36,881 nucleotides of DNA from Acutalibacteraceae bacterium (GCA_045603355.1 JAZULY010000095.1:1-36881); one strand, 5' to 3'. Shown: positions 1 to 23,309, counted from the first letter of the stretch. Numbers and translations: made by a program. The notes: a model not told the origin generated them from the sequence alone.

Positions 1-392
1 TAATATATAATCTCTGTAACAAAGAGTCCTGCTAAAAACCAAATCGTCCAGAAATGCTCTTGTGTGAGGAAATTAAAGAGCATATCGGTATAGGCACTGA
101 GTGGCTGCCCCTCTATCGCATAAACTATACTGAAAAACAGAAAAATAACCGCACCGAGACAAAAATACGGGATAACAAGGCTCTTGAATTTTTTAACAAA
201 AAATTCCTTGAAGCCGTATTTAGTGCCCGAAAAAACTGCGCCCGACAAAAAGAAAAAGAGGGGTATATGAAAGGTATATATGAGCGACGAGACATAGGGC
301 AGGCGCGTGTGACCAAGGATAACGAGCAAAAGCCCGATACCCTTAGCAGTATCAATCCAGCCTATTCTGTTTTGCTTTACTAAACTTTGCAT
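1..392 (-). CDS. Acyltransferase family 3 (membrane O-acyltransferase), 5' part only; the gene runs off the left edge of the window
   Basis: Not in the ORF track (no stop in window). Manual translation from ATG at 392 gives MQSLVKQNRIGWIDTAKGIGLLLVILGHTRLPYVSSLIYTFHIPLFFFLSGAVFS...HFWTIWFLAGLFVTEIIY, open to position 1. The R-x-x-W-x-D-x-x-KG...LV..GH and FH.PLFFFLSG motifs are typical of acyltransferase_3. SD AAAGGATGG lies upstream. Overlaps the upstream gene by 41 nt. Confidence 0.7.
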   Translation of the reverse strand, partial: MQSLVKQNRIGWIDTAKGIGLLLVILGHTRLPYVSSLIYTFHIPLFFFLSGAVFSGTKYGFKEFFVKKFKSLVIPYFCLGAVIFLFFSIVYAIEGQPLSAYTDMLFNFLTQEHFWTIWFLAGLFVTEIIY

Positions 393-1374
393 TTTTTAGC
401 CATCCTTTAATTGCGTAAAATACCGCGGCAAAAATAATTGTTGCAACGAGAATAATAAGTGGTCTCAGCCAAGCCAATACTCCGCAAACCTCACCGAACA
501 CGCCATCAAAGATATGAATAACTATCGGGTGACCTATGTAAATAAAGAAGGCGTATTCGTTTCCGATTTTCTGTAAAAGTTTGTTTTTAAAGTTCGGATA
601 CCGTGCGCAAATAACAAACAGAGCTATACTTAGCAGTATGCTGCCCACATATATTATACCGCTGTAAAACAGACTTCCGGCAACAATCAGCGTAAGACCT
701 ATGATTGCCGCTGATATAATATACAGGTCGTGTTTTCTCTGTATTAACTTTTCTCCCTTATCGTGGATAAGCTTACCGCATAAAAAATACGGAATTCCGC
801 AGAACCAGAAATTACGTGCGGTGATGCCCGATATGCCGATGCTCGGCAGTAAAATTTCACAAGCAATACCGCCGATAAAACCAAGCGCGATTATGCCGTA
901 TACATATTTGCTATTATAAAACTTATGGAATACATAGCAAAACAAATAGCAATACAACAGCGCAAAAAGAAACCACGCGACACCCGCAACATAAGTGGCA
1001 TTAAATACCAACCAAATGGCTATGTGCTTAAGCGTAAATATCTCGTCTTTAAAATAACCTAACGTTTCAACAAAGGAAAACCCGTTATCAATAAAAATTC
1101 TTACAATATTCAAAGCGTAAGCAATACCTATTAGCTGTAGTATGTGGATAATTGATTTCTTCAGCTTTTCTTTTGAGGAGTTCAGTGCAAAATAACCTGA
1201 CACCATAAAGAACACCTGCACCGCAAACGCACCAATATCCCTTATCAATTCTCCAACAAGGCCCGGAAAGTGGGCGTGAATAAAAACGACAAATATCGCT
1301 GCAACGCCCTTTAACATATCCAAGCTCGAATTTCTTAATTTAATGTCGGTCTTTTTTGCCGCAAAACTACCCAT
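352..1374 (-). CDS. Acyltransferase family 3 (polysaccharide O-acyltransferase), polytopic membrane protein
   Basis: 340 aa. N-terminus LDMLKGVAAIFVVFIHAHFPG, then about 10 hydrophobic segments (FFMVSGYF, WFLFALLYCY). Sits in the glycan operon. Confidence 0.8.
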   Translation of the reverse strand: MGSFAAKKTDIKLRNSSLDMLKGVAAIFVVFIHAHFPGLVGELIRDIGAFAVQVFFMVSGYFALNSSKEKLKKSIIHILQLIGIAYALNIVRIFIDNGFSFVETLGYFKDEIFTLKHIAIWLVFNATYVAGVAWFLFALLYCYLFCYVFHKFYNSKYVYGIIALGFIGGIACEILLPSIGISGITARNFWFCGIPYFLCGKLIHDKGEKLIQRKHDLYIISAAIIGLTLIVAGSLFYSGIIYVGSILLSIALFVICARYPNFKNKLLQKIGNEYAFFIYIGHPIVIHIFDGVFGEVCGVLAWLRPLIILVATIIFAAVFYAIKGWLKNAKFSKAKQNRLD

Positions 1375-1386
1375 ACCTTACTCCTT

Positions 1387-2970
1387 TTATATATTAACGT
1401 ATTTTGAGGTGGTAACAAATTCTATATCAATTTGCCCATTGTATTCCCGTAATACAGTGCTCATACCCTCATTCATAGCCTGAAATGAAGCCTTTTTAGT
1501 GAAGAAATTCATCTTTTCGTCGGCAAAATTCTGCGTGGGGTCGGAAGAATAACCGTCCATACCTGCGATAAATATCCTCTTCACGCCAAGGCTTATCAAA
1601 TATTTTATCAGCATCAGTGCCGCGTTATCTCTGACGGCTTCTATATCGTTCAGTAAATCCTTATACTTTGTCTGCAAATAGACGTCAACCGATGAAATGT
1701 TCGAAGTAATAATACATTTTTCGTGCTTATCATTACTAAGCTCCCTGAAACGGCGAAGGTTACTTACGAATATAAAATCTGTGTCAAAATGACTATAATC
1801 GAAATTAACGCTTATAGTAATGACGTTGTCTATCGCTGCTCGCGCTAATATTTTTTCCTTTTCGGTGTTTGAGCTGCTTCCCGGGGCGATAATCAACACA
1901 TCCTTACCCGAAATGCGTTCTTTTATTTCGGATAAATGCTGCTCGTTCGCATCCCCTGCAGCCATATATTTAAGGTATAATTCTTCGATATATTCTTTAT
2001 CGTAGTTAGCCTTTTTAGCGTTATCCATCATAGAGAATATTTCATCCATATTCTCGACAGTCAGCGTCTTCTTAGAATCAAGATACCCAGCATAGTTCGG
2101 GTGGGAATTATGCTTTGCGGAAAGATAATTCGGTAAGGAATAACCCCAATAATTCTGCTGATAAAACGGTCTTAGTATCTCGTCTATGAGAGCGAGCAGC
2201 GGTCTTAAATTATAGGCGGTACCGATATTATCGTTTAAATGCTCAACGAAAAGCTCGGTGTTAAGGTTACCTGCTCCCCTACCCATACCGTAAATGCTCG
2301 AATCGATAATAATATCCCGCGCAGTTCTTATCTCGGTTAAGGACTGAGCGTTGGAGAAGGACAGCTGCATATTATTATGAGAATGGAAACCTATAGCAAC
2401 TCCCTTTTTGAGATTGTTTTCAACAACGTAAAAAAGTCTCGTCAAATCCTTTTGCTTCATTACACCGAAGCTATCAACTATATAAAAAGCATACGGCTGT
2501 ACGTCGCCTGCACGGCGAATTAAATCCAGAAACTCCTCGTCGGAATAATTGAGCGATACCATCGCCTGAATAAATACCTTATAACCCTTCTTTCGGACCT
2601 CTCTGCAGTACTCGAGCGCGGGTATCATATCATCCTTATGAAAGGCAATTCTGAGTCCGTCAAGTCCGGTCTCACTACACTCGGGTATATCGGCTAAATC
2701 GTATTCACCGTAGTTTATCATACACACGAAAAGCTTGCCGTCCCGTTTTTCGGGCAGCATAGCAGAGACCTCGGCAAAATTGGTATACTTTGTAATATCC
2801 TCGTTATATGTAACCCGATTTGTTATAAAACCGCACTCGATGATATCAATACCTGCATCTACCAAGCCGCTAATTATTCTTTTTGTATTTTGCTTGCCAA
2901 ATTTCCACTCATTACAGTATCCGCCGTCTCTGAGTGTGCAGTCCAGAATTTTATAATTCCCCACAAGCAA
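1387..2970 (-). CDS. Fusion protein: N-terminal DRE-TIM metallolyase (HMGL-like pyruvate aldolase/carboxyltransferase fold) plus C-terminal DUF115/MptE-like (Maf-like putative glycosyltransferase) domain
   Basis: N-terminal ILDCTLRDGG and FHSHNN (HxH metal site) match the HMGL-like signature. The C-terminal half has DVLIIAPGSS and IFIAGMDGY, matching CFIIGTGPSL and VYLLGIDHNY of the stand-alone DUF115 ORF at 6935-7699. Confidence 0.65.
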   Translation of the reverse strand: MLVGNYKILDCTLRDGGYCNEWKFGKQNTKRIISGLVDAGIDIIECGFITNRVTYNEDITKYTNFAEVSAMLPEKRDGKLFVCMINYGEYDLADIPECSETGLDGLRIAFHKDDMIPALEYCREVRKKGYKVFIQAMVSLNYSDEEFLDLIRRAGDVQPYAFYIVDSFGVMKQKDLTRLFYVVENNLKKGVAIGFHSHNNMQLSFSNAQSLTEIRTARDIIIDSSIYGMGRGAGNLNTELFVEHLNDNIGTAYNLRPLLALIDEILRPFYQQNYWGYSLPNYLSAKHNSHPNYAGYLDSKKTLTVENMDEIFSMMDNAKKANYDKEYIEELYLKYMAAGDANEQHLSEIKERISGKDVLIIAPGSSSNTEKEKILARAAIDNVITISVNFDYSHFDTDFIFVSNLRRFRELSNDKHEKCIITSNISSVDVYLQTKYKDLLNDIEAVRDNAALMLIKYLISLGVKRIFIAGMDGYSSDPTQNFADEKMNFFTKKASFQAMNEGMSTVLREYNGQIDIEFVTTSKYVNI

Positions 2971-2982
2971 TACCTCCGTTTA

Positions 2983-3747
2983 CTACTTGTTGCTGATTTC
3001 GCCCTTTGCAATTTTATCACGCACGATAGCGCATACCTTTTCAAGGTCGTTTGGCGTATCAACCGCTACTGTATCGGAATCGACCTCAATATACTGCACC
3101 TTATAACCGTTCTCGATAAAGCGCAAAATCTCTATATCCTCAACGGCCTCGACCTTTGCCTTGCCGTACTTAATACCGTAATCGCAATAAAACTCTAATG
3201 CTTCGGGTTTAAATCCGTAAACGCATACCTGCTTATAGTAGGCGTAATCAAGACTGCCTTTTGGATACGGTGCAGTGGCACGTGTCAGATATACACCGAT
3301 ACCTTCTTTATTGGTAATTACCTTAGGAACGGTAAAATTAACAACCTCAATAGGATCGTTTATTTTGGTCATAAGGTTGGATATGAGTAAATCGGGATTG
3401 GTATAGAACGGTGTGATAGCAGCCTTAATGGTTGCAGGCTCGAGCAGCGGCTCGTCCCCCTGAATATTAACTATTAAGTCGGCAGGTATCTTTCTTGCTA
3501 CCTCACCGATACGGTCGGTGCCCGTCCTATGCGAATCGCTGGTCATTATTACCTTAACGCCCAGTTCCTCGCAGGTGGAAAAAATCTTATCGTCATCGGT
3601 AGCCACATAGACCTCATCGAAATCCTCTACCTTCATACATTGCTGATAAACCCACCATATCATCGGTTTGCCGCATATGTCTGCGAGCGGCTTGCCGGGG
3701 AAACGGGAGGACTTGTAACGCGCGGGAATTACACCGATAATTTTCAT
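2983..3747 (-). CDS. CMP-ulosonic acid synthetase, KdsB/NeuA-type cytidylyltransferase (3-deoxy-manno-octulosonate cytidylyltransferase-like)
   Basis: MKIIGVIPARYKSSRFPGKPL N-terminus and VNIQGDEPLL motif, both characteristic of the CTP_transf_3 / KdsB family. 254 aa. Confidence 0.8.
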   Translation of the reverse strand: MKIIGVIPARYKSSRFPGKPLADICGKPMIWWVYQQCMKVEDFDEVYVATDDDKIFSTCEELGVKVIMTSDSHRTGTDRIGEVARKIPADLIVNIQGDEPLLEPATIKAAITPFYTNPDLLISNLMTKINDPIEVVNFTVPKVITNKEGIGVYLTRATAPYPKGSLDYAYYKQVCVYGFKPEALEFYCDYGIKYGKAKVEAVEDIEILRFIENGYKVQYIEVDSDTVAVDTPNDLEKVCAIVRDKIAKGEISNK

Positions 3748-3775
3748 ATATATTACTCCTTTTTATACGGCACTA

Positions 3776-5335
3776 TCAGTCCGTAGTTCTTTTTAATCTG
3801 CTTTTAATAACCGAAAATAGATACTCTCTGTCTGCCCGATTCAGAATCAGCAACGAAGCAAGGCAGGCACCTGCAACTGCTAAAACGGCACAGGCAGCAA
3901 TAAGGCTTATCCAGGTGGTGCCCGGAATAACTGTTTTAATCAGCGCACCGCATATGCAAACTATCACACTTGCCGCCACACTCGGCAGCAATACACAATA
4001 AAATGTAGTTATCTTTAGACCCAGATACTTTGCCGAAAACGGTATTATAAACACTAAATTTCTGACGAAGCAACAGGCAACACTAACACCTGCGATAGCA
4101 AATATACCGAAATTTGTGAATTTCAGCATAAGCAGGGTAATTACGGTGCTGACAACCCCCGTAACGATAGTTGCCAGCGAACTCTGCCGCACCTTGTTTA
4201 CTACGGTAAACACACTGTGAAGCGGACGCATACCGCTGAAAACTACAACATCCACCAGCGCGATTACGGTTAATAGATAGAGTGACTCAGCTTTCTGTGT
4301 CGGCTGCCATAAGGCATAAAATTCTTTGCCGTATACAAACAGAAAACCTGCGGGCAGCGCGCACATAATGGATAGTATTTTTGATGCCTGTCGAATGGTC
4401 TTAACAATATTATCGTTTTGTTTTTTGGCATAGTCAATTATAAGCGACGGCGTGAAGGCGTTGCCCACACTTTCGTTAAGCACCAATACAAAAGCCGGCA
4501 TTGTTTTAGATACCGATAAAACGCCCATTTCGGTAGGTCCTACAAACAGGTTGGCAATAACCAAATCGAGACCGTTTGTCAGAATAGAGCCGAGCGAAGA
4601 AATGGAATTCCAGATGCCCGAAGACACCAGCTCCCATATAGTCCGCCAGGAAAAATCCTTTGCCCTTACGTGTAAATCCGGAAAAAGGCTGCGCTTATAA
4701 AAATAATAAGCCGCGCTTGTCATAATTCCCGCCGCGAGTGTGCCCACGCCTACAAAGCTTACCCTCGCATCAAGACTTACAAAAAGCGCTAATATAATGA
4801 GCGCCCTTATTATCACCGATAAAGCAGCGGTTGAAGAGGTAAGGTAGAGCTTGTTTTTTATGTAAGGCGCGGTGCTCCAGGCATTAATAACGGTCGATAT
4901 TATAAAATTAGCAAACACGAGCGCAAAAAGCAGCTTAACGTCACCCACGAGATGCTCGGGCACATTCAGTAGTTTTTCAAGGTTCCATATAACGGCAGCG
5001 CTGAGCACCGCCATAGTTACACCGAGAATAACATCGCCGAACAGCAGTGAGGAATAATACCGCTTCACCTTTTCGTGCTCGCCCTTATAATACGCCATCA
5101 TTATAAAACGGCTGCCCATAGAATCAAGGGCGGTTTTTACAAGGGTGGCATAGCTTATAAAATTATTGGCAAGATTAACAAAGCCGTTTGCCGCCGCGCC
5201 CAAGGTATCAACTATATAGGGCGTGAGGAAAAAGCTTATAACTGCCGTAACCGAAATATTAATAACCGCAGTTACGATATTTATGAAGTTTTGCTTGTTT
5301 TGTGACAGCTCAAGCTGCACGATCTTTTTGAACAT
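3776..5335 (-). CDS. Oligosaccharide/polysaccharide flippase (Wzx, MOP superfamily), paralog 1
   Basis: 519 aa, about 12-14 hydrophobic helices, polysaccharide-biosynthesis-protein architecture. Colinear with and highly similar to the adjacent ORF 5373-6926. Confidence 0.75.
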   Translation of the reverse strand: MFKKIVQLELSQNKQNFINIVTAVINISVTAVISFFLTPYIVDTLGAAANGFVNLANNFISYATLVKTALDSMGSRFIMMAYYKGEHEKVKRYYSSLLFGDVILGVTMAVLSAAVIWNLEKLLNVPEHLVGDVKLLFALVFANFIISTVINAWSTAPYIKNKLYLTSSTAALSVIIRALIILALFVSLDARVSFVGVGTLAAGIMTSAAYYFYKRSLFPDLHVRAKDFSWRTIWELVSSGIWNSISSLGSILTNGLDLVIANLFVGPTEMGVLSVSKTMPAFVLVLNESVGNAFTPSLIIDYAKKQNDNIVKTIRQASKILSIMCALPAGFLFVYGKEFYALWQPTQKAESLYLLTVIALVDVVVFSGMRPLHSVFTVVNKVRQSSLATIVTGVVSTVITLLMLKFTNFGIFAIAGVSVACCFVRNLVFIIPFSAKYLGLKITTFYCVLLPSVAASVIVCICGALIKTVIPGTTWISLIAACAVLAVAGACLASLLILNRADREYLFSVIKSRLKRTTD

Positions 5336-5372
5336 TAAATGGTCTTCTCTTCTTTCGCGGGGGTATTTTTGA

Positions 5373-6926
5373 TTAGTTTATTTTCAGTTTGGTTTTTATC
5401 ATTGAGATAAGATATGCACGCTCATCCTTGTTTAAAACGATAAGCGAAGTTAAAAGTACGCCTACCACGCAGAAAACAAAGCCCGCGGCTATAAGGGTAA
5501 TCCAACTGTTACCCGCAATTACCATCTTTAATATAAAGCCCCATACACAAAGCACCAGGCTCGAGAGCACCGACGGTACTAAGGTATAATAAAATGTCGT
5601 CATTTTAAGCCCTAAATACTTAGCCGAGAACGGGATAACGAATACCATATTTTTAATAAAGCAACAAACCACACTAACGCCCGCTATCGCGTAGATTCCA
5701 AGGTTTGTAGTTTTAAGCATAAGCAAGGTTAAAGCCACACTGACAAGCCCTGTAACAATAGTTACAATAGAGTTTTGTTTAACCTTATTAACTACCGTAA
5801 ACACATTGAAAAGCGGCTGCATACCTGTGAAAAACACACGTCCGAAAATAGTTATCGTCGATAAAATATAGAGCGTTCTTGCCTCTTGTGTCGGCTGCCA
5901 TAAGGCATAAAACTCTTCGCCGTATACAAGTAAAAAGCCAAGCGGCAGAGAGCAAATTACCGAAATCATTTTCGAGGATTGCTTAACCGTTTTAACGATA
6001 TTCTGTGCCTGATCTTTAGCATAATCTATTATTAAAGACGGAGTGAAAACATTAGCAATAGTTTCGTTAAGGGTGCTGACAAACACGGGCATGGTTTTAG
6101 CAACCGATAAAACACCCATCGCAGTATCCCCGACCGTAATATTGGCTACGAGCAAATCCAGACCGTTGGTTAAAATTGAGCCGAGTGAAGAAACGGTATT
6201 CCATACACCTGAAGACACCAGCGTCTTTATGGCTTTCCAAGAAAAGTTTCTGACATTTACGCGAAGCGAGGGGAATAAATGCCGTTTATAGAGCATGTTA
6301 AGGAGACATCCGATAAGACCTGAGACCAGCGTACCTACACCGACAAAGCTTACCGTAGGGCTGAAACTCATAAACAGACCGAATATTATTACAGCACGAA
6401 GAACCGCTGAAATAGCATTAGTTGCAGAATCGAGATACAGCCTGTTCTTCACATAGGGCGCAACACTCCACACCGTAACAACGGTGGAAACAACAAAGCT
6501 TGTAAAGAGAAGTGCGAAAAGTACTTTTACATCGCTTACGAGATGCTCAGGAATAACAAGAAAACTTTCGAGTTTCCATACACATACCGCGCCGATAATT
6601 CCCATAACAACGCCTAATACAAGGTCGCCGATGAACAATGAGGAATAATACTTTTCTACCTTATCGTGCTCATCTTTATAATAAGCCAACATTATAAAGC
6701 GACTACCCATAGAATTAAGCGCAGTTTTGGCTAACATACCGTAAGAAATAAAGTTGTTAGCAAGTGTTACAAAACCGTTAGCCTCAACGCCGAGCGTGCC
6801 TACAATATACGGGGAGAGAAAAAAACTTATAAGGGTAGTTACGAGCATATTAGCAATACCCGCTACGATATTTATTACGTTTTGCTTATTTCTTGACAAT
6901 TCCAGATTTATTATACTTCTGAGCAT
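5373..6926 (-). CDS. Oligosaccharide/polysaccharide flippase (Wzx, MOP superfamily), paralog 2
   Basis: 517 aa. Shares long identical blocks with the 3776-5335 product (LANNFISY, SMGSRFIM, SSLGSILTNGLDL, FTPSLIIDYAK, EFYALWQPTQ, IPFSAKYLGLK). Confidence 0.75.
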   Translation of the reverse strand: MLRSIINLELSRNKQNVINIVAGIANMLVTTLISFFLSPYIVGTLGVEANGFVTLANNFISYGMLAKTALNSMGSRFIMLAYYKDEHDKVEKYYSSLFIGDLVLGVVMGIIGAVCVWKLESFLVIPEHLVSDVKVLFALLFTSFVVSTVVTVWSVAPYVKNRLYLDSATNAISAVLRAVIIFGLFMSFSPTVSFVGVGTLVSGLIGCLLNMLYKRHLFPSLRVNVRNFSWKAIKTLVSSGVWNTVSSLGSILTNGLDLLVANITVGDTAMGVLSVAKTMPVFVSTLNETIANVFTPSLIIDYAKDQAQNIVKTVKQSSKMISVICSLPLGFLLVYGEEFYALWQPTQEARTLYILSTITIFGRVFFTGMQPLFNVFTVVNKVKQNSIVTIVTGLVSVALTLLMLKTTNLGIYAIAGVSVVCCFIKNMVFVIPFSAKYLGLKMTTFYYTLVPSVLSSLVLCVWGFILKMVIAGNSWITLIAAGFVFCVVGVLLTSLIVLNKDERAYLISMIKTKLKIN

Positions 6927-6934
6927 AAATAAAA

Positions 6935-7699
6935 CTAATCTTCTTTCTTTAATACTTCATCTAAGCAGACCCGCTCGAATGCTTCTAACTTACCGCCGCG
7001 CGTAGCGTTATAAACCGCAAAATTCGGTTGCTTGTCGGCAAATTTTCGGGCGGTCATATATGCGACTGTGCTCTCAACCACCCGCGGCAAATTAAGTCCC
7101 TGATTACTCGCTTTAGAGCCTTTGAAATAGTCCTGAACACCGTCATCCATTACGGGGATACCCTTTTCATTAAGGCTTATTGAATAATTGTGGTCAATAC
7201 CGAGTAAATAAACCTCGCTAAAGCCCATATAAAAAGCCAACTGAATTGCGCCGTAGGTAACGGTGAAGCCTTGCCCCATATACTTATCTATCTTTCGGCT
7301 GAAATCAGCATCCTTAGGGTAATATTCCTTGTGCCTGAGCACAAAATAAGAAATATCGGTCTCGCCTTCAAATATATTCTTACAGTCTATCGGCATAAAC
7401 TTTCGCCTCACCGATAGCTCTTTTATTTCCTTTTCGAATTTGCAAATCAGCTTGTAATCCTGATTCATATAATATGTAGGACGCCAATCTGTCTGGGAGA
7501 AAATTTCAAAAATACGGTTTGAACCGAAGGTTATTTCGCCCTTCAGTCGGTCTAAATCCCGGGCGGTAAGGCTGGGCCCTGTGCCGATAATGAAACAACG
7601 CTGACCTTTATGTATATTTTTGTATTTTTTTAATTCATTACAGATTGACCTGTTTTCAAAATACTGCTTTTGGGAAATTAAATAATCCTTAAAACCCAT
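6935..7699 (-). CDS. DUF115 / 6-hydroxymethylpterin diphosphokinase MptE-like protein (Maf-like, putative ulosonic-acid transferase)
   Basis: 254 aa. CFIIGTGPSL and VYLLGIDHNY motifs are typical of PF01973-type proteins found in nonulosonic-acid glycosylation loci. Confidence 0.7.
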   Translation of the reverse strand: MGFKDYLISQKQYFENRSICNELKKYKNIHKGQRCFIIGTGPSLTARDLDRLKGEITFGSNRIFEIFSQTDWRPTYYMNQDYKLICKFEKEIKELSVRRKFMPIDCKNIFEGETDISYFVLRHKEYYPKDADFSRKIDKYMGQGFTVTYGAIQLAFYMGFSEVYLLGIDHNYSISLNEKGIPVMDDGVQDYFKGSKASNQGLNLPRVVESTVAYMTARKFADKQPNFAVYNATRGGKLEAFERVCLDEVLKKED

Positions 7700-8745: not shown

Positions 8746-9903
8746 TTATTTTATAATGCTCTTGAATATCTTTGAAATTTTAATTAAAGGATTAATGATA
8801 GCAAAATACAAATTCGTCTTTTTTACCTGCTTATATACAACTGTGCCTTTTAAAGCCTTAACAAAACCTTTATTTGCGTATTTTTTTAAAAATACATTCC
8901 TGTCTTTTGGTTTTACACAGGGGGTCTGCAGTTGCTTATTACCTTGTAAGGTTTCCGTGATTTCTCTTTTTTCGCAATAAAGTTCTTTCTCCGCCTCTTT
9001 TAAAAGGTCATGCCCTTTTTTAGTATTAACAAACGCAAGAGAAACATAAGGGATATTTGCGGCATCTTCCTTCAGGTCTTTTTTGTTTAAACCCCAAAAA
9101 TCGCCCGCTGTAATATCGCCCACGCGACTAAGAGAGGTAAATGGACAGGTATAACAATTTTCTCTGTTTATATAACTCTTTGCATAGGCACTGTAAAACA
9201 AATCTCTTGCTTTATCTTTTCGGTAAACTGTCTTTCCCTTATTATATGCAACGGTTTTTTCCCCTTCGGGTCCTCTGAAAAGGATTTTATCATAGGGCTT
9301 TTTCCCCATAATTCCTTGCATATATTCGGTTAAATATTTTTGCGGAGGTACGCCGTGACAGATTAAATCGATAGTAATAAGCTTCTCGTAATCTTTACGT
9401 AAAAAGCTCTTTAGTCCCGCCGTCTGGCACGGGGTACCGACAAAAAGAACTTTTCTGTTCTGCCGCAGGAATTCTTTTATTTTACGGTAAGAATCCCTCA
9501 CGTGAGCGTGAATATATTTACTGCCCTGGAATTCCCCTAATTTGTCGATATCCTCTGCATAGTCGAAAATCAGACAATTATTATCATATCGGGTGCCGAA
9601 TACAACGCCGCCGTCATTAATTATTATTTTAGATAGAGTCGTTACAAGGCCTGCCGATGCGGAATTCCGAACCACATTTTCGTCCTTACTCCAAACCGCG
9701 TAACAGTCCATTACCGAATTAGTGCCGACAGGATGCAAAACAGGACACGCCTTGCTGCAAGCACCGCATTCTATGCATTTTTTAGTATTTATTACGGGCT
9801 GCAGCGCGCCTATAGCATCCTCTTCCATTTCGATTGCACCGTGGGGACAAATATTCGCACAGGCAAAGCAGCCTAAGCACTGTTCACTTTTACATAGTTT
9901 CAT
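8746..9903 (-). CDS. Coenzyme F420 hydrogenase/dehydrogenase beta-subunit-like (FrhB/FdhB) protein with N-terminal 2x[4Fe-4S] ferredoxin domain
   Basis: CLGCFACANICP and CIECGACSKACP cluster motifs at the N-terminus. The start overlaps the stop of the pyruvyl transferase (ATGA). This pairing is common in polysaccharide loci. Confidence 0.75.
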   Translation of the reverse strand: MKLCKSEQCLGCFACANICPHGAIEMEEDAIGALQPVINTKKCIECGACSKACPVLHPVGTNSVMDCYAVWSKDENVVRNSASAGLVTTLSKIIINDGGVVFGTRYDNNCLIFDYAEDIDKLGEFQGSKYIHAHVRDSYRKIKEFLRQNRKVLFVGTPCQTAGLKSFLRKDYEKLITIDLICHGVPPQKYLTEYMQGIMGKKPYDKILFRGPEGEKTVAYNKGKTVYRKDKARDLFYSAYAKSYINRENCYTCPFTSLSRVGDITAGDFWGLNKKDLKEDAANIPYVSLAFVNTKKGHDLLKEAEKELYCEKREITETLQGNKQLQTPCVKPKDRNVFLKKYANKGFVKALKGTVVYKQVKKTNLYFAIINPLIKISKIFKSIIK

Positions 9904-11030
9904 ACTATTTTTTCCTTGTAATCTAACGCTGTTTTCAAAAAGTCCTTTGATTTTTCTATCATAGGCATAAGCTTTTCATAGACCATATCATAGTCAATAT
10001 CGCGCTTCATATCCTCTACCGTGCTATTTTCGTTTGATAGCCTCTCGGGTATACCGCAGGCATTCAAAATGCTGTGCATACGCGAAGTTCCCGCACCTCT
10101 TTCTTTGGAAGTGTCGGCAAATACCAAAAATTTCTTTTTAAATATAATCGAAAAGGCTGTAGCGTGAAAAGAATTTGTGAACACATATTCCGCGTTTTCT
10201 ATCAAAGAAACAAATTCCTTCGGTCCTGCATCATAACACTTTATGTTGCTGTATAGCATTTCACGCAAATTCATACTGACCACAACAATAGGTAGGCCTG
10301 TTTCCTGGCTTAATTTTTGTGCATATGCTCTCATTCCGGGTAAATCCCCGTGCACGGCATAAAAGAAAATATAAGGCTTTTTTATCTTGTTCTTGGGAGA
10401 AATTTTCTTCCATTCGTCCTGATCCAATAAAAACACCGGATCTACTACGTGCTCTACCTGCTGACCTGATATATCGGAAATAACCTCTACCACATTACTT
10501 TCGCGAACAGAAATTGCTTTGTAATCACGTAAATGCTTACAAAAATCTGCCTTTACATCCTCGTTAATATCCAACGCCCCTACGCTTGCTGCATAAGAAA
10601 TGCGACTTCCCTTATTTTCAGCAAAATCAAGGATAAATGCGGGGTCGTAATTTCGGCAATAAGTGTTCCATATCTGATCGCTTCCGCAAACGTAATAATC
10701 GAAATCTAAATCAGCCTTTTTAAGTTCATCGTTGGAAAAATACGCTTTTTCGGTCATCGGTACCATTTCACTCAAAAAATTATCAAAGCGCTTTTTCCTG
10801 CGATGCAGACGACCGCTATACAGTAACGCTTGCAGATTTCTCGGGATATCCATAACCGAGTGGAAAGGATAAAATATCTTATAGCTCTCTTTTACGCGAT
10901 ATGTTCTGAAATCGATAGTCTTGGCATCGTAACCTATATTTCGCAGATAACGATTAAGGGCATACGCCTGCTCTAACGCACCATAATTATTTATCTTATG
11001 GATTGTAACGATTCCTACTTTTTTCATCAA
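9900..11030 (-). CDS. Polysaccharide pyruvyl transferase (EpsO/CsaB/WcaK-like)
   Basis: MMKKVGIVTIHKINNYGALEQAYAL N-terminus, typical of the PS_pyruv_trans family. 376 aa. Confidence 0.8.
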   Translation of the reverse strand: MMKKVGIVTIHKINNYGALEQAYALNRYLRNIGYDAKTIDFRTYRVKESYKIFYPFHSVMDIPRNLQALLYSGRLHRRKKRFDNFLSEMVPMTEKAYFSNDELKKADLDFDYYVCGSDQIWNTYCRNYDPAFILDFAENKGSRISYAASVGALDINEDVKADFCKHLRDYKAISVRESNVVEVISDISGQQVEHVVDPVFLLDQDEWKKISPKNKIKKPYIFFYAVHGDLPGMRAYAQKLSQETGLPIVVVSMNLREMLYSNIKCYDAGPKEFVSLIENAEYVFTNSFHATAFSIIFKKKFLVFADTSKERGAGTSRMHSILNACGIPERLSNENSTVEDMKRDIDYDMVYEKLMPMIEKSKDFLKTALDYKEKIV

Positions 11031-11048: not shown

Positions 11049-11621
11049 TTATTTCGCCAATAAATCGGTATACTCTTTAAAACTCATAAGATTAAGGTCT
11101 TTTTCGCTGATGATAAGGTTCTCTTTTCCACCTATCTCCTGGAAAGGCCAGACGATGCCTATATCGGGGTCGTTATACATAATGCCCGAGTCACCCTCAC
11201 CATAGAAAACCTCGGCACATTTATAGCTGACTACCGAGTCCTCAATAACTAAGTAGCCGTGGCCGAAATAGGGCGGAACTAAAAGGCAATTAGTGTTCTC
11301 TCCTGTTAAATGGAAGCCTCGCCACTGCCCGTAGGTCGGGGACTCAGGACGCAAATCGACTATAACGTCATACACGTGGCCACTGACGCAGCGAACTAAT
11401 TTTGCCTGCTGTTTTACAAGCTGAAAATGTGTAGCGCGGATAACACCCTTTTTAGATATTGTATAAAAAACTTCCTTTAAATCGTGGTCGATACCATTAG
11501 CACGGAAGGTATCTACATTATAATCCTTAATAAGACCGCCGCGCTCATCCGTCGCGTAAAACGGTTTTATTAAATATGCGCCCTTTAAATCGAGCTCGGT
11601 AAAATCGAATTTTTGTATCAT
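11049..11621 (-). CDS. NDP-4-keto-6-deoxyhexose 3,5- (or 3-/5-) epimerase, RmlC-like cupin
   Basis: 190 aa. RGGLIKDY, GVIRATHFQ, KLVRCVSGHVYDVIVDLR and FGHGYL motifs resemble the dTDP-4-dehydrorhamnose 3,5-epimerase family. Located directly downstream of CDP-sugar genes. Confidence 0.8.
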   Translation of the reverse strand: MIQKFDFTELDLKGAYLIKPFYATDERGGLIKDYNVDTFRANGIDHDLKEVFYTISKKGVIRATHFQLVKQQAKLVRCVSGHVYDVIVDLRPESPTYGQWRGFHLTGENTNCLLVPPYFGHGYLVIEDSVVSYKCAEVFYGEGDSGIMYNDPDIGIVWPFQEIGGKENLIISEKDLNLMSFKEYTDLLAK

Positions 11622-11631
11622 AAACTTCTCC

Positions 11632-12543
11632 TTAAATGGTTTTCAACCATTCCATAGTAAGGCGGGTGCCCTCGGCAAAGCCGACCTCTGCCTCATAACC
11701 GCAGTCCTCTTTTAGCGCGGTTATATCGAAAACTTTAAGCGGCATATTAACGCCCGTAAAGGGAACGTCACCGAAAACGGGAACGGCATCAGGAGACAAA
11801 GCGGCCTGCATTTCAAGGATAAATTCCTTTAAGGGGCGCGCGTTTCCGCTGCCTATCATATACTCACAAAAAGGCTTGCCGCGTTCGGCCACCAGATAGA
11901 AAGCTTTAGCCACATCGGTTATATAAACAAAATCATAATTTTGTGTTGCGGCGGTAAACTGCAGCGGCTCGCCGTTTATAATCTTGCGGATGGTGGTATT
12001 AACAAAGCGGGGAGATAATTCACCCACACCGTAGGCATTGGTAATCATCGGCCAGAGAAGGTCTATGCCGATATCCGCCGCTACCGCCTTGCACATACTG
12101 TGTGCAATATGCTTGCCCATACCGTAAATATAACCCATACCCGGGCGGTTTCCCTGCGCATGCACGGCAGCCTCAACCTCGTATTCCATAATACTGCCTG
12201 CGCAAACAAAACGGCTACAGCCCTTTTCCTTTGCAACCTTCAGACATTCTACGGTGCTAAGTGCATTTTTCATCTGCAAATTATAGTCTACCCTTTGGGG
12301 ACCCGCCGAGCCCACCCAGGCGAAATGAATAAATGTATCATATACACCGACGGGTATTTTAGCGCTCAGTTCATCGCGGTTTAAAACATCGCACTGAAGG
12401 TATTTAAGACCCTGTGCAGGCTTTAGTCTATTTGGAGTCTCGCTGATATCGAGAGCCAAAACCTCTATGCCCTGTTTTAAAAAATAATCTACGGTATAGC
12501 TGCCGACAAAACCGTCAGCACCTGTGATAATTACCTTTTCCAC
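11632..12543 (-). CDS. NAD(P)-dependent epimerase/dehydratase family protein (probable CDP-4-keto-6-deoxyhexose reductase)
   Basis: GTG start directly after the rfbG stop. VIITGADGFVGS Rossmann motif. SDR YxxxK candidate (YGMGK). 303 aa. Confidence 0.75.
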   Translation of the reverse strand: MEKVIITGADGFVGSYTVDYFLKQGIEVLALDISETPNRLKPAQGLKYLQCDVLNRDELSAKIPVGVYDTFIHFAWVGSAGPQRVDYNLQMKNALSTVECLKVAKEKGCSRFVCAGSIMEYEVEAAVHAQGNRPGMGYIYGMGKHIAHSMCKAVAADIGIDLLWPMITNAYGVGELSPRFVNTTIRKIINGEPLQFTAATQNYDFVYITDVAKAFYLVAERGKPFCEYMIGSGNARPLKEFILEMQAALSPDAVPVFGDVPFTGVNMPLKVFDITALKEDCGYEAEVGFAEGTRLTMEWLKTI

Positions 12544-13608
12544 TTAGAAAACCTCTTTGCTAAAGTATTCTTTTATCTGCTTGTCCATACATTCGCGAAC
12601 ATTTCCGCCCGATATCCAGCATTTGCTCCACTCGGTAACCTTGGCTATAGCCTCGTCTAAATCCCAACGGGGACGCCAGCCGAAGGTGCATTTAAGTTTT
12701 GAGCAATCAAGCTTTAAGAAATTAGCCTCGTGCGGTCCGCCGTCGTATTTGTTTTCCCAGACCATTCCCTCGCCCCAGTGCTTTACGAATAAATCGACCA
12801 AAGCGCCTGTCTGGAAGCAGTCGCGGTCATCGGGACCTACATTATAATAGCCTGCGAATTTATTATCCTCGTACTGGCGCGCCGCTATCATTAAATAGGC
12901 ATAAAGCGGCTCTAAAACGTGCTGATACGGGCGTGTCGAGAAGGGATTTCTCACGATTATATTTTTCTTTTCTATCGCCGCGCGGATACAGTCGGGTATA
13001 ATGCGGTCGTTTGCGAAGTCGCCGCCGCCGATAACGTTGCCTGCGCGCGCGGTGGAAACGGCAATTTTACCGTCACTAAAGAAGCTGTTTTTATAGCTGT
13101 GGGTAACCAGCTCAGAGCAGGATTTTGAGTTAGAATACGGGTCATAACCGTCGAGTTCTTCATTCTCGCGGTATCCCCACTCCCACTCCTTATTAAGATA
13201 AACCTTATCGGTTGTTACATTTAAAAATGAGCGAACACAGTCACTGTTTCTTACACACTCAAGGATATTGACAGTGCCCATAACATTAGTTTCATATGTA
13301 TATGCGGGGTCCTTGTAGCTGTCTCTTACTATCGGCTGAGCCGCTAAATGCAGTACAATTTCGGGTTTCGCCTCGTCAAACGCCGCTTTAAGGGAATTAT
13401 AGTCCCTGATGTCACCTATAATTGACTGAATATCCTTTTCAATTTCGGCTATTTCAAAAAGTGACGGAGAGGTCGGCGGGTTTAAGGAATAACCCGTAAC
13501 AACGGCGCCCGCGTGTGACAATATTTTACATAGCCACGAGCCCTTAAAGCCTGTGTGACCCGTTACGAATACCCTTTTCCCCTTATAAAAGCTTAAATCA
13601 AATTCCAT
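12544..13608 (-). CDS. rfbG: CDP-glucose 4,6-dehydratase
   Basis: FYKGKRVFVTGHTGFKGSWL N-terminus and YSNSK active-site motif. 354 aa, immediately downstream of rfbF. Confidence 0.9.
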   Translation of the reverse strand: MEFDLSFYKGKRVFVTGHTGFKGSWLCKILSHAGAVVTGYSLNPPTSPSLFEIAEIEKDIQSIIGDIRDYNSLKAAFDEAKPEIVLHLAAQPIVRDSYKDPAYTYETNVMGTVNILECVRNSDCVRSFLNVTTDKVYLNKEWEWGYRENEELDGYDPYSNSKSCSELVTHSYKNSFFSDGKIAVSTARAGNVIGGGDFANDRIIPDCIRAAIEKKNIIVRNPFSTRPYQHVLEPLYAYLMIAARQYEDNKFAGYYNVGPDDRDCFQTGALVDLFVKHWGEGMVWENKYDGGPHEANFLKLDCSKLKCTFGWRPRWDLDEAIAKVTEWSKCWISGGNVRECMDKQIKEYFSKEVF

Positions 13609-13614
13609 AAATTT

Positions 13615-14391
13615 TTACTCCCATAATTTCCAAGGTGCAGTGCCGTTATTCCAAAGCTTTTCTAATTTCTGCTTTTCTCTTAATGTATCCATACACTGCC
13701 AGAAACCCTTGTGAATATAACTGCCGAGCTGCCCCATTTTAACAAGTGCGTCCATCGGCTCTTTTTCGAAAACGGTACTGTCGCTCGGAATATAATCGAA
13801 AAGCTGCGGCTCAAATACCATATAACCGATGTTGATAAGGTCGCCGTCAAGGTCACTCTTTTCGCGAAATGCCTCAACGCTGCCGTCACTCGATAACTCC
13901 AAAACGCCCTTGTTCTGACCGAAATTGTAAACCGATATAGTACCCATCTTACCGCTTGCCTTATGGGTTTTCAGTAGTTCCTCTATATTAACATCGCCTA
14001 CCGCGTCGCCATAGGTCAGCATAAAGGTTTCGTTACCTACATATTCCTGAATACGCTTTACTCTGCCGCCCGTTTGGGTGTTAAGGCCTGTGTCAACAAC
14101 CGTTACCTTCCACGGCTCTGAATGCTTATTATGTACTATCATTTCATTACCGTTTGTGAAATCAAAGGTAATATCCGACGTATGAAGAAAATAATCGGCA
14201 AACCATTCCTTAATAACGTGCTGTCTGTAGCCTGCGCAGATAATGAACTCGTTAAATCCGTAATGGGAATATTCCTTCATAATATGCCAGAGAATGGGCA
14301 TTCCGCCGATCTCTATCATCGGCTTAGGCTTGAACTGCGATTCCTCGGATATTCTCGTACCGAAACCGCCCGCTAAAATTACAACCTTCAT
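13615..14391 (-). CDS. rfbF: Glucose-1-phosphate cytidylyltransferase
   Basis: MKVVILAGGFGTRISEESQFKPKPMIEIGGMPILWHIM. I prefer the ATG at 14391 (SD GAGGTGGA 7 nt upstream) over the track's 14406 start. Confidence 0.9.
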   Translation of the reverse strand: MKVVILAGGFGTRISEESQFKPKPMIEIGGMPILWHIMKEYSHYGFNEFIICAGYRQHVIKEWFADYFLHTSDITFDFTNGNEMIVHNKHSEPWKVTVVDTGLNTQTGGRVKRIQEYVGNETFMLTYGDAVGDVNIEELLKTHKASGKMGTISVYNFGQNKGVLELSSDGSVEAFREKSDLDGDLINIGYMVFEPQLFDYIPSDSTVFEKEPMDALVKMGQLGSYIHKGFWQCMDTLREKQKLEKLWNNGTAPWKLWE

Positions 14392-14392
14392 A

Positions 14393-15514
14393 TTATTCCA
14401 CCTCATTTAATAAAGAGTCAAATAAATTTTCTACTACCTTTACGGTGTTTTCCTTTGAAAAGAATTTTCCGCGCTCGACAGCCTTCCCTTTATAGTATTC
14501 TAAGTTGCCGCCTGACAGGATTTCTCGCATACCCGCAAAAATACCCTCTTCGCTGTTCTCGGTTACTATGCCGTACTCGTCGCTGTCGCCGAGCAGCTCG
14601 TAGGCACCGCTGCAGCAGGTGCTTACAACGGGAGTACCGATTATAAGGCTTTCGGTAACGGCGGTACTAAAGCCCTCGCGGCGCGATGAGCAAACAAATA
14701 AATCCGCCTGTTTTACATACTTATACGGGTTTTCCTTAAAGCCTAATAAATGAAACGTATCCTTAACACCATAGTCCTCAATTAATCGGGTGAGTCTCTC
14801 CTCCTCGGTGCCTGTGCCGAGAACATAAATGTTATGCCTAAATCCCTCATCCAAAAGCCTTTTATGCACCTTTATCAGTCGGTCATAGCCCTTCTCATAG
14901 CGCAGTCTGCCTATAGATATAACGTTGATATTATCCGAAAAGCGTATATCCTCTACCGCCTCATCGGATAAAGCCAATATCTTTTCATCCTCATTGGTAT
15001 TGTATAAAACGGTACAGGGGTGTTCTATTTTGGACAGCTGCAAAAAATCCTGCTTTACGGTTTCGGCTACGCATACCGTAGCATCAAAACTGCCGTAGCA
15101 CTTTCTTGCTTCACCGAGTGACCTGAAGCTATGGGACAGTGCCCTTTCGCTTAACTGCTCTACGTGTATCCAACTAACCTTTTTTGTATCTTTGTAAGGA
15201 CATCCCGCTATTATTCGGGCTGAAGGTCCCTCCAAATAGGATACCGCAATATCATACCTCTTTTTTACTATTTTGCGGTAAAGCGTTTCGGGGGAAAAGA
15301 GTTTAAACATCTTTGTATTACCCGGAAACTGCCGTTTAAAGCCTGCGATATACTCGATATCCTCATTTAAGAAGTTTCGGTTAACGCCCACATCGAAAAG
15401 GGTTTGAACAGTTACCTTATATTTAGTTTTATCAAGGTTATTTGCCAAATTAACGAGCACCCGTTCGGCACCGCCGCCGCCGAGACTCGGTATTAAAAAC
15501 AAAACTGTTTTCAT
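14393..15514 (-). CDS. Glycosyltransferase family 4 (GT-B, group 1)
   Basis: LIPSLGGGGAERVL N-terminus and C-terminal EGFSTAVTESL (E-x7-E-type) motif. 373 aa. Confidence 0.8.
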   Translation of the reverse strand: MKTVLFLIPSLGGGGAERVLVNLANNLDKTKYKVTVQTLFDVGVNRNFLNEDIEYIAGFKRQFPGNTKMFKLFSPETLYRKIVKKRYDIAVSYLEGPSARIIAGCPYKDTKKVSWIHVEQLSERALSHSFRSLGEARKCYGSFDATVCVAETVKQDFLQLSKIEHPCTVLYNTNEDEKILALSDEAVEDIRFSDNINVISIGRLRYEKGYDRLIKVHKRLLDEGFRHNIYVLGTGTEEERLTRLIEDYGVKDTFHLLGFKENPYKYVKQADLFVCSSRREGFSTAVTESLIIGTPVVSTCCSGAYELLGDSDEYGIVTENSEEGIFAGMREILSGGNLEYYKGKAVERGKFFSKENTVKVVENLFDSLLNEVE

Positions 15515-21451: not shown

Positions 21452-21464
21452 TGACTACCCTTCT

Positions 21465-22103: not shown

Positions 22104-22128
22104 TCTTATGTACCCCTAAAATCGAAAT

Positions 22129-23262: not shown

Positions 23263-23309
23263 AATACCTGTCCTTTTACTCATAAAAATAAACACAAAAA
23301 ACCATTAAA

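Follow-up and report, generated by a model that had tools for sequence, protein, structure and literature searches.

Acidic keto-deoxy sugars, among them sialic acids, Kdo, pseudaminic acid, and legionaminic acid, shape the recognition of bacteria by hosts and phages. To our knowledge, every described route to CMP-activated keto-deoxy sugars starts with a PEP-dependent synthase. In the CMP-Kdo pathway, KdsD, KdsA (the PEP-dependent Kdo8P synthase), and KdsC supply Kdo to a KdsB/KpsU-type cytidylyltransferase, and Kdo transferases complete the set; in the nonulosonic-acid pathways, NeuB/PseI/LegI synthases are followed by NeuA/PseF/LegF cytidylyltransferases and by sialyltransferases or Maf proteins. 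We know of a single activity for cytidylyltransferases of the CTP_transf_3 family, the activation of 2-keto-3-deoxy sugar acids. Pyruvate aldolases favor cleavage on thermodynamic grounds, and the DmpG/BphI 4-hydroxy-2-oxovalerate aldolases, which have a DmpF/BphJ dehydrogenase partner, belong to aromatic-catabolism loci.

Here, we describe a capsule locus from a gut or rumen Clostridia bacterium in which a CMP-activating enzyme is paired with a fusion protein that carries a predicted pyruvate aldolase. A literature search returned no paper on this gene-pair module, which is widespread and, judging from sequence comparisons, probably makes a sialic-acid-like acidic sugar without the usual synthase. 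If so, there would be a second, unrelated way to the carbon skeleton of such sugars, and many gut and rumen commensals (including Ruminococcus, Lachnospiraceae, Oscillospiraceae, Treponema, and methanogen-related archaea) would bear sialic-acid-like surface sugars that are missed by genome surveys based on NeuB or KdsA. A family of thousands of proteins annotated only as "aldolase catalytic domain-containing protein" would gain a function, and ulosonic acid synthesis would gain a new biocatalyst. Several carriers are cultured isolates, so the hypothesis is directly testable.

Gene order in the capsule locus

The window analyzed is an entire contig of 36,881 bp, and thus nothing of it lies beyond the left edge. 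The gene cluster is a capsule, Wzx/Wzy-type polysaccharide operon in which positions 1387-7699 encode five proteins on the minus strand: the fusion, a cytidylyltransferase, two Wzx-like flippase paralogs, and a 254-aa DUF115 protein. A sequence-only reading had proposed that these genes form a noncanonical CMP-ulosonic-acid module, and all of the genes and motifs that it listed are in place on the minus strand. Its proposal was borne out in part: the replacement of the synthase gained support, whereas the channeling role given to the fused DUF115 domain did not.

The fusion protein (P0001; PF00682) occupies 1387-2970 by the ORF tool and 1387-2964 by the database gene call, which gives 525 aa. 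It comprises an N-terminal DRE-TIM (HMGL-like) domain of predicted class II pyruvate-aldolase type (residues 1-256, 2197..2964; PF00682), a helical linker or "communication-like" region with alignment invariants (residues 257-340, 1945..2196), and a C-terminal Rossmann-type domain, remotely MptE/DUF115-like by hhalign and Foldseek (residues 341-525, 1390..1944), all on the minus strand.

A CMP-activating enzyme without a linked PEP-dependent synthase

The cytidylyltransferase gene (2983..3747, minus strand) lies 12 bp upstream of the fusion start set by the ORF tool (2970). Its product matches PF02348 (E 1.2e-45, 156 bits), exceeds the NCBIfam cutoffs for NF009905 (287 bits versus 255) and TIGR00466 kdsB (160 versus 155.2), contains PARYKSSRFPGKPL, NIQGDEP, and VDTPND, and has KpsU as its best PDB match (1gq9, E 8.7e-48). 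It is a bona fide KdsB/KpsU family member, as had been read from its motifs, and the module appears to share the logic of the CMP-Kdo pathway, in which a 3-deoxy-2-ulosonic acid is made, CMP activated, and transferred.

The supply of that acid is where the module differs. Pfam scans of the substantial ORFs in the window found no NeuB or DAHP_synth_1 family member, and validated NeuB and KdsA queries gave no tblastn match there, which agrees with the earlier claim that it holds no PEP-dependent synthase. Across 90 related loci (1.54 Mb of loci, rather than whole genomes) and the window, KdsA was found in none; the KdsA step of Kdo supply through KdsD, KdsA, and KdsC is thus missing from them. 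For NeuB, only 2 of 79 loci had a homologue, which lay more than 7 kb from the module, so that the linkage of a PEP-dependent synthase to a cytidylyltransferase that defines canonical nonulosonic or octulosonic clusters is missing in 77 of 79. These searches covered loci, and a distant kdsA or neuB may exist in the same organism. Nor does a canonical pathway seem to be hidden past the left edge, which had been named as a way for the proposal to fail: syntenic relatives show acyltransferases there and then unrelated genes.

Further differences from the CMP-Kdo pathway are that most module loci lack a KdsC-type phosphatase, that half have a NeuA/PseF-type cytidylyltransferase instead, and that the proposed synthase would be an unrelated metal-dependent pyruvate aldolase. 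Unlike those of the CMP-Kdo pathway, most hosts of the module lack LPS, being Gram-positive bacteria or archaea; the Gram-negative carriers make Kdo. With the nonulosonic-acid pathways, the module shares a CTP_transf_3 step followed by GT42-like, DUF115, GT52, or GT38-like transferases. In contrast to those pathways, no conserved hexosamine-precursor genes accompany the module in the loci compared, and its carbon-carbon bond would derive from pyruvate, not PEP.

The predicted aldolase domain

Residues 7-254 of the fusion match PF00682 (E 3.3e-19, 69.8 bits, cutoff 29) and include DCTLRDGG and FHSHNN, which places the domain among the DRE-TIM metallolyases, as the sequence-only reading had it. 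The closest NCBIfam families are 4-hydroxy-2-oxovalerate aldolases, all at scores under their equivalog cutoffs (92 bits for TIGR03217, cutoff 286; 105 bits for NF006049, cutoff 229). PDB matches are to 3dxi and to DmpG-type aldolases. With DmpG/BphI, the fusion has in common the DRE-TIM fold, the metal ligands, the enolate-stabilizing Arg, and a helical domain after the barrel: R12, D13, H194, and H196 align with DmpG R17, D18, H200, and H202 and are invariant in 14 homologues. It departs from the DmpG/BphI type at the catalytic His21 of DmpG, which is Tyr16 in the fusion, and at the hydrophobic LLLPG stretch, which aligns with conserved polar residues (Asn84, Tyr85, Glu87, and Tyr88) and which we take, from BphI Leu87/Leu89 work, to be the aldehyde pocket. 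The fusion also differs in having an MptE-like domain, in sitting in polysaccharide loci, and in its partners, since Pfam scans of the window ORFs found no acylating aldehyde dehydrogenase of the DmpF/BphJ type.

The closest solved structure is 3dxi (Bacteroides vulgatus BVU_2661, "N-terminal domain of a putative aldolase"), with an E value of 2.2e-28 for the single sequence and 9.8e-36 for the profile. It has DCTLRDGGY, HxHxN, GMGRGAGN, and WG..LP in common with the fusion, and the full-length protein has a further, C-terminal part, to judge from the title of the entry. The two differ in that identity is only 26% in the Foldseek alignment; 3dxi is a structural-genomics entry for which our literature search found no paper or functional data.

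A Claisen-type acyl-CoA-dependent synthase (citramalate, isopropylmalate, or homocitrate) or a carboxyltransferase, serving a non-sugar acid substituent with an indirect link to the cytidylyltransferase, would also fit the DRE-TIM superfamily, whose members of this kind appear as weaker matches. We regard this as highly improbable. Of four DmpG-type chains, three have profile E values of 1.6e-20 to 1.2e-18 and 4jn6 has 1.6e-12, whereas isopropylmalate synthases score far worse (6e-6), and the best NCBIfam match is an aldolase (105 bits versus ~42). The restriction of known CTP_transf_3 activity to 2-keto-3-deoxy sugar acids and the co-occurrence of sialyltransferase-like transferases also argue against it. 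The acyl-CoA synthase or carboxyltransferase that had been set against the original proposal is thus not what the comparisons point to, and on them the domain is best predicted to be a class II pyruvate aldolase, closest to DmpG/BphI.

Distribution and conserved neighborhood

More than 7,900 fusion homologues with the same ~525-aa architecture are in databases, and the fusion is found in at least 564 GTDB species. Hosts include Clostridia, Erysipelotrichaceae, Sporolactobacillus, Treponema, Tannerellaceae, Succinivibrio, Hallerella, Fretibacterium, and Thermoplasmata archaea. In 72 of 79 loci, the fusion gene has a CTP_transf_3 cytidylyltransferase gene within 150 bp; in another 3, the distance is up to 2.2 kb, and truncated contigs account for the last 4, which leaves 75 informative loci. 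The two genes are therefore neighbors in 75 of 75 informative loci from several phyla, which answers the co-occurrence question that the sequence-only reading had raised.

Among the 72 loci, the partner is KdsB-type in 37 and NeuA/PseF-type in 35, and these types are not orthologous. Fusions are nevertheless about as alike within partner types (identity, 0.594) as between them (0.582), and the constant element would thus be CMP activation of the same product. Of 44 complete loci, 33 have sialyltransferase-like transferases (DUF115, GT52/polyST-like, or GT38-like) near the module. In Ruminococcus flavefaciens Y1 (L073), the genes form a compact Wzx-DUF115-cytidylyltransferase-fusion-kinase cassette. 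Comparative genomics thus strongly backs the core of the earlier proposal, a predicted aldolase domain in place of a NeuB/KdsA-type synthase.

Two DUF115-like domains with different relationships

The proposal had counted two DUF115 domains, of which one stands at full strength. The stand-alone 254-aa DUF115/MptE-like protein (6935..7699, minus strand), a candidate CMP-ulosonate glycosyltransferase, matches PF01973 (E 3.6e-14, 53.4 bits, gathering score 34.6), and its family aligns with CstII by hhalign over 194 columns (97.3%, E 2.5e-11), which relates it to GT42. Maf/DUF115 proteins use CMP-activated sugars (CMP-Neu5Ac, CMP-Kdo, and related donors) to transfer Neu5Ac and Kdo (bioRxiv 10.1101/2020.06.03.131540).

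The ~190-aa C-terminal domain of the fusion has only a remote likeness, with an E value of 0.081 and 13.1 bits for PF01973, below the gathering score of 34.6 and so outside the Pfam family. By hhalign, it aligns with the DUF115 family at 87% probability (E 3.7e-6), with APGSS opposite GTGPSL and AGMDGY opposite LGIDHNY, and with CstII at only 20%; GT42 sialyltransferase 9c08 is a weak profile match. The best Foldseek match of its model (pLDDT 80) is the Methanocaldococcus jannaschii MptE pyrophosphokinase (8sd5; E 4e-4, probability 1.0), at a TM score of only ~0.44. Its motifs are APGSS, NFDY, SNLRRFR, RDNA, and AGMDGY, and SNLRRFR is a family-specific arginine cluster; two aspartates are also invariant. 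With MptE (the archaeal 6-hydroxymethyl-dihydropterin pyrophosphokinase) and CstII/GT42, it has glycine-rich and G-x-D-x-Y motifs in common and may have the same fold, and it differs from them in falling below the Pfam threshold, in its own invariant SNLRRFR block, and in being almost always aldolase fused (990 clusters among 1.84 billion representatives). Inspection of the sequences revealed no equivalent in it of the catalytic His188 of CstII. The preceding linker is the best-kept segment of the protein (mean pairwise identity of 66% across 79 species), carries the near-invariant block WGYSLPNYLSAKHNxHPNYA, and is modeled at low confidence by AF2; the 3dxi alignment runs through its WG..LP.

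Fused C-terminal domains average 49% identity, versus 30% for stand-alone DUF115 transferases. Because the domain is better conserved than those transferases and is found beside separate ones, action on a small, conserved ligand is more likely for it than channeling of a CMP-sugar to the glycan, the role assigned to it earlier; that role is further weakened by its remote likeness to DUF115. The MptE/GT42-like domain probably binds a nucleotide or CMP-sugar, and its predicted ligand would be one conserved among hosts. Candidate roles for it are those of a second transferase whose acceptor is fixed, of a feedback sensor, and of a (pyro)phosphokinase.

In the last case, the pathway would be the same, with the domain acting as an MptE-like kinase or pyrophosphokinase on the aldose or the product; a phosphorylated ulosonic acid would be an intermediate, as in the Kdo8P and Neu5Ac-9-P routes, and its phosphate would be removed by a HAD or general phosphatase ahead of CMP activation. 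The MptE match is the best structural one, the arginine cluster and invariant aspartates would suit a phosphoryl substrate, and the degree of conservation resembles that of a small-molecule enzyme. HAD phosphatases, moreover, follow the fusion in 3 loci and the cytidylyltransferase in a distant version of the module (27% identity) on a Leisingera plasmid. Against these points stand the low TM score, sequence likeness to DUF115 and GT42 transferases, the lack of a phosphatase in most loci, and the separate PfkB kinase of many loci, with which such an activity would be redundant, and we consider it quite unlikely.

A proposed pathway and the source of the ulosonic acid

We somewhat favor, on sequence grounds, a module that makes a CMP-ulosonic acid for the polysaccharide, with the aldolase domain as the source of the acid, the cytidylyltransferase as the activating enzyme, and the stand-alone DUF115 protein as the transferase. 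Domain identities, gene order, and cross-species co-occurrence were observed directly, and from these we infer every reaction and which sugar is made. The metal-dependent DRE-TIM domain would form a pyruvate enolate by means of Arg12 and a metal on Asp13, His194, and His196 and add it to a common aldose or aldose phosphate, yielding a 3-deoxy-2-ulosonic acid. The adjoining KdsB-type enzyme would convert this acid and CTP to a CMP-sugar, with pyrophosphate release driving the reversible aldol reaction forward. The CstII-like DUF115 protein would then move the acid from CMP to a lipid-linked repeat unit, which would be flipped by the Wzx-like proteins and possibly O-acylated.

The commonest extra neighbor of the module is a KDG-kinase (KdgK)-like gene, which follows the fusion immediately in 19 of the 44 complete loci (552 bits for NF041633, along the kinase part; 236 bits for NF041332). 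This association hints that the product is a short, KDG-like acid; why one operon would hold both a KDG kinase and a biosynthetic aldolase is not obvious. Kinase and HAD phosphatase never occur together across the loci compared. KDG is an abundant catabolic intermediate of pectin-degrading gut bacteria, and the substrate of the cytidylyltransferase may thus come from elsewhere than the fusion. The cytidylyltransferase would then activate either KDG released by hexuronate or pectin catabolism or Kdo made by an unlinked KdsA pathway, and the fusion might reset C4 stereochemistry (by retro-aldol and aldol reactions), regulate the pool, or serve as a committed transferase through its C-terminal domain, whose motifs resemble a sialyltransferase donor site. 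The normally catabolic role of KdgK-like kinases fits such an external source, as does the coverage of loci, not whole genomes, in the synthase searches. A rare triple fusion (P0151), in which the same fusion protein is preceded by an HpcH/HpaI 2-keto-3-deoxy-acid aldolase, suggests aldehyde or pyruvate exchange between two aldolases; an HpcH-like gene, however, is in none of 90 loci. More than half of the loci, including the window, lack the kinase, and its presence correlates with no change in the fusion. The linkage of fusion and cytidylyltransferase in all informative loci and the occurrence of the module without other sugar-acid genes in Gram-positive bacteria and archaea also count against an external source, which we think unlikely. 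We know of no Kdo pathway in these Gram-positive bacteria and archaea.

Returning to synthesis by the aldolase domain, we would tentatively go further, with somewhat less than even confidence. The fusions may constitute a PEP-independent, metal-dependent ulosonic-acid synthase family that has replaced NeuB/KdsA-type enzymes in hundreds of species from the gut, the rumen, and the environment. The product may be a short KDG-like 3-deoxy-hexulosonic acid, not Kdo or a nonulosonic acid, that is CMP activated and put on capsules by sialyltransferase-like enzymes, with the fused MptE/GT42-like domain as a CMP-sugar sensor or a second catalytic step without a described counterpart.

Flippase and acyltransferase genes

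The Wzx-like paralogs (3776..5335, weak NF041503 WZX_like match; 5373..6926, PF13440 and PF01943; both minus strand) share 62% identity, and homologues of the first are found with the module in other loci. Immediately downstream of the fusion is an Acyl_transf_3 membrane acyltransferase gene (352..1374, minus strand; PF01757, E 2.2e-30), in the same order in loci L004-L007 and L012. Its product may O-acylate the polymer, and its place in the module is uncertain. The N-terminal part of a second acyltransferase-like gene (1..386, minus strand), putative by sequence character alone, is cut by the contig end; by blastx, the fragment has 63-67% identity to L012:3665-4684 and L008:12682-13728, both of which follow the module there.

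Results and Discussion

The fusion of the window (525 aa, 1387-2964, minus strand), in which an N-terminal DRE-TIM aldolase domain is joined through a linker (residues 257 to 340) to a C-terminal domain (C-domain, residues 341 to 525), is linked across genomes to a CTP_transf_3 cytidylyltransferase gene, and we refer to the pair as the module. The database gene call of the fusion begins two codons after the start of the 527-aa open reading frame. Open reading frames were called and neighbors clustered in 79 species-level loci; loci with at least 6 kb on both sides of the fusion (n = 44) are referred to as complete. The sequence-only reading had proposed a test of co-occurrence, and the two genes do co-occur: the distance between fusion and cytidylyltransferase is at most 150 bp in 72 of the 79 loci and at most 2.2 kb in a further 3, and each of the 4 loci that lack it has <650 bp of upstream sequence. 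The partner is of the KdsB type in 37 of the 72 loci and of the ∼218-aa NeuA/PseF type in the other 35. Fusion sequences show no split by partner type, and a search for fusion residues that track cytidylyltransferase type or kinase presence found none. The partner in the window (2983-3747, minus strand), read earlier as KdsB-like, scores above both the subfamily and the equivalog cutoffs of NCBIfam KdsB and is closest to the capsule enzyme KpsU.

The fusion has >7,900 database homologues of the same length and occurs in at least 564 GTDB species, with hosts among the Clostridia, other Bacillota, Spirochaetes, Bacteroidota, Pseudomonadota, Fibrobacterota, Synergistota, and Thermoplasmata archaea; plasmid and phage collections yielded only distant relatives. 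Cultured isolates among the carriers include Ruminococcus flavefaciens Y1, Ruminococcus sp. FC2018, Sporolactobacillus spathodeae DSM 100968, and Lactimicrobium massiliense Marseille-P4301. A limited literature search found no publication on the fusion, nor any on the structure 3dxi (BVU_2661 of Bacteroides vulgatus). What makes the module interesting is its wide distribution, its lack of annotation, and the fact that its function can be tested directly.

The absence of a PEP-dependent synthase from the window was confirmed, with no Pfam match to NeuB or DAHP_synth_1 and no tblastn match to NeuB or KdsA queries. Using these queries, which were first validated on PDB sequences, we found KdsA in none of the loci and NeuB in only 2 of 79, both times >7 kb from the fusion. 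Clustering of the neighbors in the 79 loci turned up no other sugar-precursor genes associated with the module. The module resembles the CMP-Kdo and nonulosonic-acid pathways in their last two steps, and its cytidylyltransferase belongs by score to the KdsB family of the former. However, because no PEP-dependent synthase is linked to it, the module lacks the first step that defines both pathways, and its candidate synthase comes from a different superfamily.

All motifs quoted in the sequence-only reading are present in the window sequence, and Pfam confidently assigns the N-terminal half of the fusion to the HMGL-like/DRE-TIM domains. Such a domain might have been an acyl-coenzyme A-dependent synthase or a carboxyltransferase; in both sequence and structure searches, however, 4-hydroxy-2-oxovalerate aldolases of the DmpG/BphI type outranked isopropylmalate, homocitrate, and citramalate synthases, HMG-CoA lyase, and carboxyltransferases by a wide margin. 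Among solved structures 3dxi, which covers the N-terminal domain of an uncharacterized B. vulgatus homologue, is the closest. Arg12 of the fusion aligns with the enolate-stabilizing arginine of DmpG, and Asp13, His194, and His196 align with its three metal ligands. The position of DmpG His21 is occupied by an invariant tyrosine, and the hydrophobic LLLPG stretch of DmpG aligns with conserved Asn84, Tyr85, Glu87, and Tyr88. If LLLPG is the aldehyde-specificity site, as we take it to be in BphI, these polar residues would fit a hydroxylated aldehyde rather than acetaldehyde. The fusion is not a DmpG orthologue: its scores fall short of the equivalog cutoffs, and no dehydrogenase partner accompanies it. 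Conservation within the protein peaks in the linker, a region that is nonetheless poorly modeled; by analogy with DmpG Tyr291, the linker may contribute catalytic residues.

The C-domain had been read as a DUF115 domain fused to the aldolase. This assignment is the one weak point: its ∼190 residues match DUF115 (PF01973) at an E value of only 0.081, under the Pfam threshold. Profile-profile comparison with DUF115 proteins of related loci gave 87% probability with the two signature motifs aligned. The best PDB match of the AlphaFold model (pLDDT, 80; pTM, 0.81) is the archaeal pyrophosphokinase MptE, the founding member of PF01973, with a sialyltransferase further down the list. The only PDB sequence match of the profile is a GT42 sialyltransferase, weakly, over a helix-strand-GxDxY element. 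These three independent comparisons, of profiles and of a predicted model, suggest that the C-domain belongs, as a divergent member, to the MptE/DUF115/GT42 fold group. Among 1.84 billion representatives, its profile matched no more than 990 clusters, almost all of them ∼525-aa fusions or fragments thereof, so the two domains are practically always found together. One truncated database protein has the C-domain joined to a GT2 domain.

The proposal that the fused domain hands a CMP-sugar to the glycan fared less well, as three observations speak against a typical acceptor-specific transferase. Across 79 species, its pairwise identity averages 49%, versus 30% for stand-alone DUF115 proteins of the same loci; it is universal, whereas separate transferases come and go; and it has an invariant arginine cluster of its own, SNLRRFR. 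It retains residues that align with CMP-binding elements of CstII-like enzymes. The C-domain could transfer to a fixed acceptor, sense the CMP-sugar as a regulatory domain, or act as an MptE-like (pyro)phosphokinase that feeds in a phosphorylated intermediate.

Transfer could be served by other proteins near the module: stand-alone DUF115, GT52/polysialyltransferase-like, and GT38-like proteins, present in 33 of the 44 complete loci. In the window, the stand-alone DUF115 (254 aa; 6935-7699, minus strand) is, as first read, a confident PF01973 member, and its family matches the sialyltransferase CstII with 97% probability over the whole length. DUF115/Maf proteins reportedly use CMP donors when transferring Neu5Ac and Kdo (bioRxiv 10.1101/2020.06.03.131540).

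The simplest account of the module, whose steps we infer entirely from genomics and toward which we lean by a small degree, is that the fusion would supply a 2-keto-3-deoxy sugar acid, the neighboring cytidylyltransferase would turn it into a CMP-sugar, and sialyltransferase-type enzymes of varying acceptor specificity would place the acid on the repeat unit. Because no precursor genes are linked to the module, a common metabolite would be expected as the aldehyde partner.

In 28 loci, among them 19 of the 44 complete ones, the fusion is followed after ∼13 bp by the gene of a PfkB kinase that closely resembles 2-keto-3-deoxygluconate (KDG)/KDGal kinases; the window lacks this kinase. An HAD phosphatase takes the same downstream position in three loci and never co-occurs with the kinase, and in a distant plasmid version from Leisingera (27% identity) the genes run fusion, KdsB, HAD. 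The kinase is hard to place in a biosynthetic scheme and leaves no mark on the fusion sequence; its recurrence points independently to a 2-keto-3-deoxy acid, which may have six carbons. In Ruminococcus flavefaciens Y1 (locus L073, 6951-12612), Wzx, DUF115, cytidylyltransferase, fusion, and KdgK-like genes form a compact five-gene cassette flanked by oppositely oriented genes. Neither an initiating transferase nor a polymerase lies close by, and the five genes may serve as a self-contained decoration unit.

A single minus-strand polysaccharide operon (352 to about 25100) fills almost all of the left two-thirds of the window, itself an entire contig; its gene order comes from Pfam and NCBIfam scans. 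The PfkB gene at 24209-25102 is a 1-phosphofructokinase (fruK; TIGR03828, 324 bits versus a cutoff of 292), and neither it nor the inositol-monophosphatase-family gene at 23428-24207 matches the kinase beside the fusion elsewhere. We rejected the two as the pathway kinase and phosphatase; they lie directly upstream of the polysaccharide genes in the same orientation and probably have unrelated housekeeping functions. The operon continues, in order from its 5′ end, with a LegC-family aminotransferase, a PglC-like initiating transferase, and a NeuD/PglD-type acetyltransferase. The aminotransferase and acetyltransferase (20837-23295) were considered as remnants of a legionaminic-acid pathway and set aside, as they adjoin the PglC-like gene and only 13 of 79 loci have DegT genes alongside the module. 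Next come GT4 and GT2 glycosyltransferases with an EpsG-type polymerase, and then a complete-looking CDP-hexose set (11049-14406) of glucose-1-phosphate cytidylyltransferase (365 bits versus 300), CDP-glucose 4,6-dehydratase (454 versus 278), an SDR reductase/epimerase, and an RmlC-like epimerase, which implies a CDP-activated 6-deoxyhexose in the repeat unit. A polysaccharide pyruvyl transferase and its FrhB-like 4Fe-4S partner (8746-11030) come next; L008, L011, and three other loci with the module also have this pair, so a pyruvate ketal may sit on the polymer besides the proposed ulosonic acid. A GT2 gene is the last before DUF115.

Between the DUF115 and cytidylyltransferase genes lie two Wzx-like flippase paralogs (5373-6926 and 3776-5335), 62% identical over 515 residues without gaps; duplication of a flippase within one operon is unusual, and the relatives L008, L011, and L018 have a single copy. 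Beyond the fusion are an Acyl_transf_3 gene (352-1374) and, overlapping its 3′ end, the start of a second acyltransferase-like gene (1-386), cut by the contig end and syntenic with L012, L008, and L011.

Two fusion copies occur in L004 to L006 (1-1416 and 10001-11578), where a PfkB kinase follows the first copy and a cytidylyltransferase and a GT52-like gene precede the second, and in L019 (771-2351 and 10001-11584). In a Tannerellaceae MAG (L050, 169-12227), four CTP_transf_3-like genes surround the fusion, and the locus also holds a KdgK-like kinase and, ∼7.7 kb upstream, a NeuB homologue; it may be a mixed locus making two kinds of ulosonic acid. On a Desulfobaculum bizertense plasmid (L088, 5846-10014), a 337-aa relative of the aldolase domain (35% identity) without the C-domain adjoins split transketolase genes and rfbH, a context more suggestive of branched or dideoxy-sugar synthesis than of a CMP-ulosonate module. 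Separate HpcH/HpaI-like aldolase genes were found in none of the 90 loci examined; in one metagenomic representative protein (P0151, 772 aa), an HpcH/HpaI class II 2-keto-3-deoxy-acid aldolase domain precedes the HMGL-like domain and the C-domain.
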